The translations under genes were made by a program, and so were the position numbers. From Microcoleus sp. (GTDB lineage Bacteria; Cyanobacteriota; Cyanobacteriia; Cyanobacteriales; Microcoleaceae): a stretch of DNA of 64,000 nt. This document shows, piece by piece, positions 46,201 through 57,826 of this stretch. The notes under the pieces were generated by a model. That model had not been told where the DNA came from. It saw nothing but the letters and a program-made list of their open reading frames with translations, and did not search any database. The stretch is from positions 416,001 through 480,000 of the forward strand of contig JAYFMW010000030.1 in NCBI GenBank assembly GCA_042408215.1, written 5' to 3'. Within the stretch, counting starts at the first letter, position 1, and each line of letters starts with the position of its first letter.

Positions 46201-46277
<77 letters not shown>

Positions 46278-46351: not shown

Positions 46352-46428
<77 letters not shown>

Positions 46429-55503: not shown

Positions 55504-57030
55504 CTACGCGCCGACCGCTTCCTTGGCCGCGTACAACACCTCAGCATTAATTAGAGCAATCCCCCGATCGCGCGCGAACTTCTCAGTATTTCGCTTGACT
55601 TTCCCGCGCACAAAACCAGGAATTTTATTCAACTCAGCTTGTCCATCCTTCGTCCAATTCATATCAGAATCAGCCGAAATTCCCTTAGTAATCACTTCCT
55701 TGGTATCGTGGCCACCGAAGATTTCCAGCAAGTGGTCTTCCATGCCCAAAGTAAAGGAATTGTACACCAAATCTACGCACTGATTCGTGCCTTCATAACC
55801 CAAAAATGGCTTGTAGCCGATCGGGAAATTTTGGACGTGAATCGGCGCAGCAATTACCCCGCAAGGAATATCCAACCGCTTACCGACGTGACGTTCCATT
55901 TGTGTACCGAAAATTGCGGAAGGTTCCGCTTTCGCGATCGCATCTCCGATCGCCCCATGATCCTCCGTCACCAGCACTTCATCGCAATACCCTTTTACCT
56001 CTTCCCGGAACCAATCAGCATCGTGTTTGCAGTAGGTTCCTGCCCACACAACGTGAATTCCCATCTCGCGAGCCAAAATCTTCGTCATCGCCGCTGCGTG
56101 GGTATTATCGCCAAATACGACCGCTTTTTTGCCTGTTAAGTTTTGGCAGTCGATCGATCGCGAAAACCAAGCAGCCTGCGACACAAATCGAGTTTGTTGA
56201 TCGATGAAATCTTCATAATCAACATCAGCACCTTGAGCATTCAAAACTTGCTGAATCTTGCGAATACAGCGCGCAGTTTCCACCACACCCATCGGTGTAA
56301 TATCCACCATCGGCGTGCCGAATTCTTTTTGCAAATACTCCCCGGCCATCATCCCTAATTCCCGATAAGGAACCAGATTAAACCAAGCGCGCGGCAGTCT
56401 TTTCAAGTTATGAACCGAAGCACCTTCGGGAATAACTTCGTTGACTTCTATGCCCAAATCTGCCATCAAACGCTTCAACTCAGTGCAGTCGTGCTGGTTG
56501 TGGAAACCCAGCGTTGACATCCCGATGATGTTGACAGATGGTTTTTCGCTTTTGGCTTCTACTAAATCGCCTTTTTTGCGGGATTTGTTGATGTAAAATT
56601 GGACGATTTGATCCAAAGTGCGATCGGCAGCTTGGAGTTCGTTTACGCGATAATGGTTAACATCCGCCAGCAAAACATCGCCTTTGGCTTCCAATTGAGC
56701 TCGCTCCACGAAGTTTTCCAAGTCTTCTTGCAGAATGCTGGAAGTGCAAGTCGGAGTCAACACGATTAAATCTGGGTGTTCTTCTCTGTCTTTGCGGGTG
56801 ATGTTGTCCACCACTCTTTCTTGGGAACCGCGCGCGAGTACGTGTCTGTCAACGACGCTGGTAGTTACCGGGGTGAAGTCCCGTTCCCTCTCCAGCATGG
56901 AACGCATGACGTTAAAATAGTCGTCTCCGATGGGTGCGTGCATGATCGCATGGACGTTTTTGAAGGAAGTCGCAACGCGCAGAGTGCCGATGTGGGCTGG
57001 CCCTGCGTACATCCAATAAGCCAATTTCAT
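55504..57030 (-). CDS. chlB: Light-independent protochlorophyllide reductase subunit B
   Basis: [49 protein letters not shown]. Confidence 0.98.
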
Positions 57031-57404
57031 AAAAAATACTCGGTAAGTGGGAAACTCAGAGTTTTTAGACCTGAGAGGAAAACGACTTGGCGGTTTTAAC
57101 CGCCTTGAATCCCCTCCGGCGAGGGGTGGAGGGGTATGGTTGCCCCTCCGGTGAGGTATGGTTGCCTCGATCTCCCTTGCGGGGTAATGTTAGCTTCGCC
57201 AATGTTATAAGAGCTTTTTAGACCTGCAACACTGCCTCAGTGACTTTAAGACTGTTTAATTGCAGATGACAGGGCTCTTTACTAGCTTCGCATCCACAGG
57301 GTGTCATGACTCAAATAACGTAGACCTCTAAGGTCTTAGGCTGGTCAGCACAGCTTGCTCGATCGCTCTAACAAGCTCAGTCCCTTTAGGGCTGAGTTAC
57401 TGAC
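57031..57404. mobile_element. Non-autonomous IS200/IS605 derivative (IscB lineage) with no ORF
   Basis: Subterminal hairpins CTCAGAGTTTTTAGACCTGAG and CTCAGTCCCTTTAGGGCTGAG, TGAC terminus; left end resembles that of the 42513 element. Confidence 0.8.
57171..57404 (-). ncRNA. HEARO / IscB omega-RNA scaffold, orphan
   Basis: Minus strand: GTCAGTAACTCAGCCCTAAAGGGACTGAGCTTG...TGACCAGCCTAAG...CTACGTT...GACACC...TAAACAG...CAGTG...AACATTGGCGAAGCTAACATTACC, matching recalled HEARO blocks in order. Confidence 0.8.
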
Positions 57405-57749
57405 AGGTATTTTTCCTGATGCTGGTTGAGATTTGCCCGATCGGGCTATTACTGCTAGATTTTAGAGTTGTTTCTGATTCTCTCACCGGATGAATCCTTT
57501 AGAAATAATGACTTTCTGAAGATTTACAGATGGCTGCGATCGCTCAAACCCTTTGCTGAACAGGGATTTGACTCCACACTAAAACAACTTTGCGGTTGTT
57601 TTACTGCAATAATTCTTAATTTATTGTCAATTTTCCGCCTGTCACCGCCCGATGCACAATTAACAGTCAAAGTCAAGTTTACTGCCAGATTTTCCGCTGC
57701 TGAGTTTGTATTGATAGTTGATATCAATTCCGGTTGCACCGTCAGGTGA

Positions 57750-57826
57750 TGTTGGCTGTTGGCTTTTGGCTGTTGACTGTTGGCTGTTGACTGTTGGCTG
57801 TTGACTGTTGGCTGTTGACTGTTGAT
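57750..57826. repeat. STRR heptamer tract (GTTGGCT/GTTGACT)
   Basis: About 10 tandem units. Confidence 0.9.

Follow-up and report, generated by a model that had tools for sequence, protein, structure and literature searches.

Why does the start codon of chlB in one Microcoleus genome lie hundreds of nucleotides away from its native ribosome-binding site (RBS), and what fills the gap? The stretch analysed here, called the window, comprises 64,000 nt of Microcoleus sp. (GenBank assembly GCA_042408215.1, contig JAYFMW010000030.1, positions 416,001 to 480,000) and carries at 55504..57030 chlB, the gene for subunit B of the light-independent protochlorophyllide reductase. The gene, its leader and all parts of the insertion described below are read on the minus strand. 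Directly upstream of the ATG sits a mini element of 374 nt, 57031-57404, without a protein gene. This is a protein-less, non-autonomous derivative of the ISC transposons, the IscB branch of IS200/IS605, in which the two transposon ends and the full omega-RNA gene are preserved. An earlier note on this DNA had proposed that an orphan mini-transposon with an IscB omega-RNA separates the RBS of chlB from its ATG, inserted precisely at their joint, and both a covariance model match and the empty sites of relatives bear this out.

With cmscan against Rfam, the segment 57184-57404, in chlB sense, matches the HEARO family (RF02033) with 135.7 bits (gathering score 83, E = 5e-28) over model positions 1-211 of 211. 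The scaffold, which the earlier note could only call HEARO-like, is thereby confirmed over the full model length. We further requested the chlB 5′ regions of 40 relatives; 30 loci were returned, and 23 same-genus genomes gave a chlB match. The element is absent in 20 of the 23, where the leader runs straight into ATGAAATTG (ATGAAATTGGC). In 14 of these 20 genomes the junction is exactly AGGAAAAATACCT|ATGAAA (CAGGAAAAATACCT|ATGAAA, that is, ...AATACCT|ATGAAA), the empty site that the earlier note had predicted, and the other six carry one to several substitutions in the leader. At the empty junction AGGA precedes the ATG by 9 nt, and removal of the element does restore a normal RBS with this spacing, as had been foreseen. 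The site is filled at the same point in three congeners (G013, G023 and G024), and all six outgroup loci show a plain RBS and ATG. Since the empty sites read leader joined to ATGA, the element extends over 57031-57404 and was inserted without duplication; the same limits are found where homology to the sister copies starts and stops. HEARO model position 1 falls on window position 57404, which is the first base absent from the 20 empty sites. The omega-RNA scaffold begins, in other words, at the right-end boundary of the transposon.

The 508-aa open reading frame (ORF) of chlB is intact, as the earlier note had it, with the Pfam domains Oxidored_nitro and PCP_red, the first of them starting at residue 12 (profile position 2), and chlB is likewise intact in the filled congeners G013, G023 and G024. 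Within 57031-57404 there is no ORF of note, again in agreement with that note; the longest are chance frames of 44-45 aa. In full-length sister copies an ORF of about 424 aa with RRXRR and HNH domains begins about 20 nt past the scaffold, and such an IscB ORF (HNH/RuvC) is absent directly downstream of the scaffold at chlB. Its absence does not exclude membership in the HEARO family, because orphan copies are a described state (PMC10691335, in the part of that article available to us). All other traits agree with the assignment: insertion beside a fixed motif of 4-5 nt without target-site duplication, as in IS200/IS605 and the ISC group; imperfect subterminal hairpins at either end, with terminal inverted repeats lacking; a Y1 (HUH) TnpA with compatible ends in the genome; and mobility, visible as presence/absence polymorphism (6 filled and 20 empty sites in 26 congeners) and as many copies. 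The element is thus a new member of described kinds, the ISC transposons with the target N|ATGA and the standalone omega-RNAs.

Read along the RNA strand, the element opens with GTCAGTAA, followed 8 nt inside the boundary by the right-end subterminal hairpin CTCAGCCCTAAAGGGACTGAG (57376..57396; CTCAG-CCC-TAAA-GGG-A-CTGAG), which doubles as the first stem of the omega-RNA. Directly past the Rfam model lies a further hairpin, CCCGCAAGGG (57174..57183). It is common to most of the 70 HEARO copies of the genome and continues in full-length copies into the iscB ribosome-binding site GGGAGGA; RF02033 lacks downstream structure according to the preprint of Meers et al. (10.1101/2023.03.14.532601). 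An internal spacer (57105..57173) with the direct repeat CAACCATACC...CCGGAGGGG marks the site of the iscB deletion, and its length differs among 28 mini copies, whose sizes range over 349-580 nt. Next comes a GC-rich, terminator-like hairpin, GGCGGTTAAAACCGCC then AAGTCGTTTT (57089..57104), which was found by a consensus scan that is no evidence of function; a similar hairpin precedes the left end in most copies. The left-end subterminal hairpin CTCAGGTCTAAAAACTCTGAG (57055..57075; CTCAG-GTC-TAAAA-AC-T-CTGAG) shows compensatory changes among 54 copies, both in the inner stem (GTC/GAC, GGC/GCC, GAC/GTC) and in the outer one (CTCAG/CTGAG versus CGAGC/GCTCG versus CCCAG/CTGGG). Hairpins of the IS200/IS605 type, recognised already in the earlier note, are therefore present at both ends. 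The terminal stretch TTTCCCACTTACCGAGTATTTTTT (57031..57054), conserved in 57 nhmmer matches, now adjoins the chlB ATG in place of the native RBS region. On the other side, beyond the right end, stands the chlB leader CAGCATCAGGAAAAATACCT (57405..57424) with the native AGGA. It is the presumed guide, with a length assumed to be 20 nt, and is conserved with 0-3 changes in most congeners.

Is the position at the ATG an accident of this copy? A nhmmer profile of the left end finds 57 copies in the genome; ATGA follows in 54 of them, and the sequences diverge right after it. The chlB start codon, together with the first base of codon 2 (57027..57030), is thus the target motif. That it serves as the insertion motif or transposon-adjacent motif, as had been suggested, is further backed by published work on the ISC elements of cyanobacteria, whose target is N|ATGA and which have 5′-GT termini and Y1-type hairpins (PMC4810608, from the portion accessible). 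For the IscB of Geobacillus the available text of 10.1101/2023.03.14.532601 gives the motif TTCAT 5′ of the left end, which is ATGAA on the omega-RNA strand, and an omega-RNA bounded by the right end. An earlier scan with a 15-mer motif and up to 3 mismatches had returned 232 matches, mostly by chance, and was superseded by the nhmmer profile. In two congeners (locus L114 in G044 and locus L118 in G017) related mini elements are followed by GTGA and not by ATGA, which raises the possibility that the target is RTGA and that GTG start codons are used as well.

The proteins that the chlB-site element lacks are available elsewhere in the genome. There are 70 HEARO matches, 64 of them above the cut-off, with the chlB-site copy in 24th place, 31 RRXRR matches, 16 of which are full-length without stops (one such ORF combines RRXRR and HNH), and 20 matches to Y1_Tnp (PF01797). 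One iscB gene, at contig position C8:37057-38328, has an omega-RNA with 80% identity to that at chlB. Two identical copies of an IS605-type element of about 2040 nt, located approximately at C13:77060-79100 and C30:360684-362720 of this genome (G000; C numbers denote its contigs), have the same left-end family, an ATGA flank and a like right-end hairpin, CTCAGGGCTGAAGCCACTGAG, which stands 8 nt from the boundary as does the one at chlB. Their tnpA of 135 aa lies on the strand reading toward ATGA; two ORFs on the opposite strand, of 235 and 169 aa, are perhaps a split tnpB. This element is likely the transposase source for the mini elements. Pairing left ends with HEARO matches yields 28 mini elements (349-580 nt) and 4 full-length ones (about 1.6 kb). 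The lineage at chlB is single-copy in this genome, its nearest paralog being only 83% identical. The same left-end family also bounds a protein-less family of about 386 nt without HEARO, in five copies (C11:18898, C17:90707, C28:101752, C5:73349 and C5:494025) that differ by 0-9 mismatches and have an ATGA flank; not one of these copies adjoins a start codon. The copies are near-identical and therefore recent, and probably represent a mini element from the TnpA/TnpB branch that was active not long ago.

The question raised in the earlier note, whether other copies too abut ATGA at start codons, has a positive answer. Among the 54 ATGA-flanked left ends, 36 adjoin a start codon, 34 of them that of an open ORF of at least 90 aa and the remaining two those of petM and petL. 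In at least 18 of the 36 no more than 12 residues lie between that ATG and the start of the first Pfam domain. The share rises to 24 of 28 among the mini elements of this left-end family and is 3 of 4 among the full-length ones; a second left-end family has 6 of 6 mini elements at ATGA start codons. The genes concerned, named from their Pfam domains, include chlB, petM, petL, cbiC, rplS, rpsP, lepB and psb27, genes for an AlaDh/PNT subunit and a GH57 enzyme, fusA, hisG, rsmH and speA, as well as response regulators, a CPP1-like protein and an SDR. In one of the 34, a sheath gene, the element sits after codon 4, judged by an in-frame ATGGCTCAAACA in the upstream flank. The start-codon position is thus a family-wide outcome and not an adaptation of chlB.

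Two processes could produce such an address, a preference during insertion or selective retention afterwards. If all non-disruptive ATGA sites are counted, the expected share at start codons is 12%, with an upper bound of 25%. It becomes 84%, 72% or 55% if only start codons and sense sites up to 30, 50 or 100 nt upstream of genes are admitted, and the observed shares of 67% (36/54) and 86% (24/28) fit this sense-leader range of 55-84%. Left ends with HEARO are at start codons in 27 of 32 cases versus 9 of 22 for those without (Fisher p 0.0013). With a rough gene map and small samples, we infer retention rather than insertion preference. The recent HEARO-less family of about 386 nt, with 0 of 5 copies at start codons, is consistent with retention, and so are the orientation bias and the cut-and-copy model described for such elements (10.1101/2023.03.14.532601, as far as its available text goes). 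Copies would persist at start codons since sense-transcribed, gene-sparing ATGA sites are mostly start codons.

We suggest that the situation at chlB arose in the following steps, and regard this course of events as highly probable. The ISC-derived mini element inserted at the N|ATGA of chlB without duplication, which moved the native RBS and leader 374 nt upstream and kept chlB intact; this much is shown by the sequences. Also shown is that the genome provides helpers in trans, namely the Y1 TnpA element with matching ends and at least 16 full-length, stop-free iscB matches. Read-through from the chlB promoter would then give an RNA consisting of the leader as guide, the scaffold and the chlB mRNA. 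After excision by TnpA, IscB carrying this RNA would cut the empty allele, in which the leader is followed by ATGA, and recombination would restore the element, as in the retention mechanism demonstrated for elements of Geobacillus. The U-rich tail of the left end would now form the translation start region of chlB. Over the whole family, copies would persist at sites that leave every gene whole and at which the guide RNA is transcribed in sense from a promoter of the host, with the start codon as the common outcome.

Several points weigh against this mechanism. The null models use a crude map of 4973 ORFs, not an annotation, with 2105 ATGA start codons and 15127 intergenic ATGA sites. The upstream gene has the same orientation in only 18 of the 36 start-codon copies, and the read-through must therefore come from the gene's own promoter and not from an upstream gene. 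Outside the genus we read 22 HEARO loci, 11 of them full-length with too little downstream DNA to be judged; a clear left end|ATGA with an ORF was present in 1 of the 11 orphan loci. The making of the omega-RNA at chlB, its binding by IscB and its use as guide are predictions from the DNA sequence. The RNA data are assembled (Logan) contigs from four metatranscriptome runs, in which DNA carry-over is possible and starts, ends, strand, levels and the unity of a transcript are unreadable. Translation may also suffer. The new sequence upstream of the ATG, CCGAGUAUUUUUU, has no clear Shine-Dalgarno motif, only a GAG 8 nt before the ATG, and in the minimum-energy fold of 57452-56990 both this stretch and the AUG are base-paired to the leader, with unpaired probabilities of 0.0-0.1 over GUAUUUUU. 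The predicted pairing over the start suggests that chlB translation could be lowered rather than left neutral. Finally, the copy itself may be impaired: in a 6-nt block its scaffold reads AAAGAG where the orthologs have CCCCTG, which breaks stem pairs by placing non-canonical pairs in one stem, and it scores 11 bits below the G013 ortholog (135.7 versus 147.1 bits).

The latter observation would also suit a copy that is no longer a guide RNA nor mobile and persists because it does no harm. Such an inert relic would moreover be in line with the single-copy state of the lineage in this genome, where the next paralog has 83% identity. The score is nevertheless well above the Rfam cut-off and ranks 24th of 70, both ends and their hairpins are intact, and divergence between species is low, unlike that of the G056 copy, which has drifted by 6-8%. 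We hold the relic to be quite improbable.

Is the element transcribed from the chlB promoter? A promoter-like site, GTGAGA and TAAAAT with a spacer of 16 nt, lies at 57459..57486 and matches the consensus in 9 of 12 positions. The number of such sites does not exceed that in shuffled sequences; both hexamers at 57486-57459 are conserved in same-genus leaders. Two contigs from two runs of one study span 56800-57201 and thus reach from chlB into the element, one with 1 mismatch and the other with 5, a contig of 3387 nt from one run spans 56800-57531, and one of 350 nt from one run spans 57139-57452, from the scaffold to the leader, and ends at 57452. Runs X14 and X15 have no contig cover upstream of 57420, which is uninformative on transcription there. 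The claim of the earlier note that the chlB promoter transcribes the omega-RNA thus gains some weak backing from the conserved promoter-like site and the bridging contigs of RNA libraries, in which carried-over DNA may have been assembled. Its companion claim, that the chlB leader is the guide, agrees with the scaffold beginning at the right-end boundary, which is the known IscB architecture; the use as guide we infer. In run X16, a 350-nt contig has an odd joint that leads from 57452 to about 57116, 337 positions back. Such a joint differs from the left-end/right-end circle junction expected of an excised element and may be an assembly artefact.

In any case, the native RBS is replaced and a structured leader of about 370 nt now precedes chlB, as the earlier note had stated, with the native RBS 374 nt away. 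It could then be asked whether the element has been domesticated as a cis-regulatory module of the chlB 5′ untranslated region, acting by start-codon masking or read-through attenuation and possibly tied to dark chlorophyll synthesis. Several observations would suit such a role: all 374 nt, spacer included, are far more conserved between species than the third codon positions of chlB, in the predicted fold GUAUUUUUUAUG at the start codon is paired to CAUCAGGAAAAAUAC of the leader, the stretch from the scaffold to chlB includes a terminator-like hairpin, and chlB is intact in every filled genome read. The module is, however, not conserved at chlB. Of 23 congeners 20 lack it, among them the nearest two in chlB sequence (G005 and G008), and so do 6 of 6 outgroup loci. 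The same arrangement stands at 35 other, functionally unrelated genes, for example petM, petL, rplS, rpsP, fusA, hisG and speA, and no chlB- or light-related feature was found. The GTA that extends the leader pairing is a trait of the lineage that is also seen with other leaders, and what remains is an A-rich leader facing an invariant T-run. We found no support for a dedicated chlB regulator. The co-option for dark chlorophyll synthesis proposed in the earlier note is thus not upheld, and domestication at chlB appears very unlikely to us.

Regarding the pairing itself, the leader CATCAGGAAAAATAC (57405-57421) is complementary to GTATTTTTTATG (57027-57042) on the minus strand, and the predicted long-range helix closes the whole element and covers the AUG. 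We rejected this complementarity of AAAAATAC and GTATTTTT as an adaptation to the site, as the GTA variant occurs in copies with unrelated leaders and the rest is an A-run against the invariant T-run. A second gene tied to the protochlorophyllide step carries a mini element at its start, the CPP1-like gene at C5:596343. This protein family comprises the chaperone-like protein of POR, the light-dependent protochlorophyllide reductase. Two such genes among 36 are probably a coincidence.

How did several species come to have the element at the same codon? A search of 61 genomes of the genus added two filled chlB sites, in G057 (97% identity) and G056 (93%), so that the site is filled in 6 of the 26 congeners read, namely G000, G013, G023, G057, G056 and G024. 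The copies in G013, G023, G057 and G056 are orthologous to ours. G024 has the same junction and a nearly identical left end with a different omega-RNA subfamily (about 78% identity over 181 nt), and G008 has a copy of 91% identity at the start codon of another gene. The element diverges by 1.6-3.2% among G000, G013, G023 and G057 and by 6-8% to G056. The third codon positions of chlB differ by 13-21% among the first four and by 6.8% between G056 and G057.

These numbers invite the thought that the element moves between species by homing: the guide and ATGA would match the conserved empty site, IscB would cut there, and incoming DNA would be the template from which the element is copied, the flanks being co-converted little or not at all. 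The same lineage does occupy the same junction in five genomes (G000, G013, G023, G057 and G056) in spite of the divergence of chlB in the first four. Its 95-nt spacer has 1-3 differences, versus about 14 expected at 15%, and at the positions that vary among 27 paralogs the orthologs differ by 6-7%, the nearest paralog within G000 having only 83% identity. The filled genomes are scattered on the chlB tree, with G000 sister to the empty G005 (95/84) and G013 to the empty G011 (100/100), and the guide region is conserved across the genus. The flanks retain the single-nucleotide polymorphisms of their own lineage up to 14-18 nt from the junction, and over all ten pairs the distances of element and chlB are uncorrelated (Spearman -0.14).

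The last figure depends, however, on one copy. Without G056 the six remaining pairs give a positive correlation (Spearman 0.70, p 0.12), as vertical descent of a slow, constrained element with one decaying copy predicts. Repeated loss is easy, because excision by TnpA is seamless, and it too could scatter the filled genomes over a tree that was built on one gene, chlB. Homing from foreign DNA would further require that the omega-RNA of the donor is expressed in the recipient, and for such expression there is no evidence. No co-conversion tracts were found around the element in the filled genomes to within 14-18 nt, a result compatible alike with descent, with independent insertion and with homing by synthesis-dependent annealing. 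Homing is in our view rather unlikely; apart from it, the sharing of the chlB site may reflect an ancient insertion that changed slowly under constraint and was lost many times without a trace at the seam, or a favoured site at which elements inserted repeatedly.

The chlB site does not stand alone in this respect. At fusA, sequence of the left-end type abuts the ATG in 13 of the 30 loci read (L125-L154), in at least four variants. On top of the shared chlB site this indicates that repeated occupancy of the same start codons is real. We did not accept fusA as a clean second example and used it for the count of filled sites only: in G000 (C9:14586-15165) the 162-nt native leader of G005 and G008 is missing, and the element contains a nested, unrelated repeat of about 197 nt that is 93-99% identical to several other places.

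The closest described relative is ISC1-1_MA of Microcystis aeruginosa (Kapitonov, Makarova, Koonin 2016, PMC4810608), which, according to the part of that article available, shares the 5′-GT(CA) terminus, the insertion just before ATGA without duplication, the subterminal imperfect hairpins, a Y1 transposase acting in trans and a cyanobacterial host. The ISC elements described there carry iscB, whereas the element at chlB consists of the RNA gene and the ends only. With the PATEs and REP-like IS200/IS605 derivatives of the same article it has in common that it is short, without an ORF, bounded by two hairpin ends and served by a Y1 transposase in trans; unlike them it holds a structured guide-RNA gene of 230 nt between the ends. 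The IscB element of Geobacillus stearothermophilus (10.1101/2023.03.14.532601, available portion) resembles it in that the right end delimits the omega-RNA, the flank provides the guide and the motif is TTCAT/ATGAA. In that system the motif is common to TnpA and the nuclease, and IscB elements tend to lie in the orientation of the upstream gene, in which host transcription reads through them; we count both traits among the likenesses. The Geobacillus element is a full element with iscB, assayed in E. coli, whereas ours is protein-less and known from its sequence. Standalone omega-RNAs are reported to act in trans with compatible effectors, and their biological role was called unknown (Altae-Tran et al. 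2021, via the accessible part of PMC10691335). They, too, are mobilised RNAs without effector or transposase in genomes that also have effector-bearing loci; what differs is that their positions are mapped here, with 24 of 28 at start codons and one site common to six species. In the text of PMC4810608 at hand start codons are nowhere mentioned (term count 0), and in the literature consulted, which includes PMC4810608, PMC13565253, PMC9755519 and 10.1101/2023.03.14.532601 with supplements excluded, a link of such elements to start codons was not found.

If one goes further, ATGA start codons might be safe harbours for a guild of protein-less guide RNAs, which would live on host-gene transcription, use the former RBS and leader as guide and be retained because IscB cuts the empty allele, and which at chlB and fusA possibly act as an RNA-guided gene drive between species. 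We put this forward tentatively and consider it doubtful as a whole. Were it true, the near-identical element in the native flanks of five species would be a product of homing and not of descent. Standalone omega-RNAs, for which the role was left open in the available text of PMC10691335, have in this genome a mapped, strongly non-random address at the start codons of core genes (24 of 28), and a simple quantitative model of retention reproduces the start-codon share and is testable. The shared sites, chlB in 6 of 26 genomes and fusA in 13 of 30 loci, form a natural data set able to separate RNA-guided homing from descent with loss. For the host it means that at dozens of genes a transposon end has taken the place of the RBS and the gene bears a structured leader of about 370 nt.

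Two features of the window outside this subject may be mentioned. Tandem heptamer-like repeats, TTGGCTG/TTGACTG, occupy 57740-57800, within the long intergenic stretch that precedes the promoter of chlB. Two tRNA genes, at 46201-46274 and 46352-46425, lie 78 nt apart and have equal Rfam scores of 63.3 bits.

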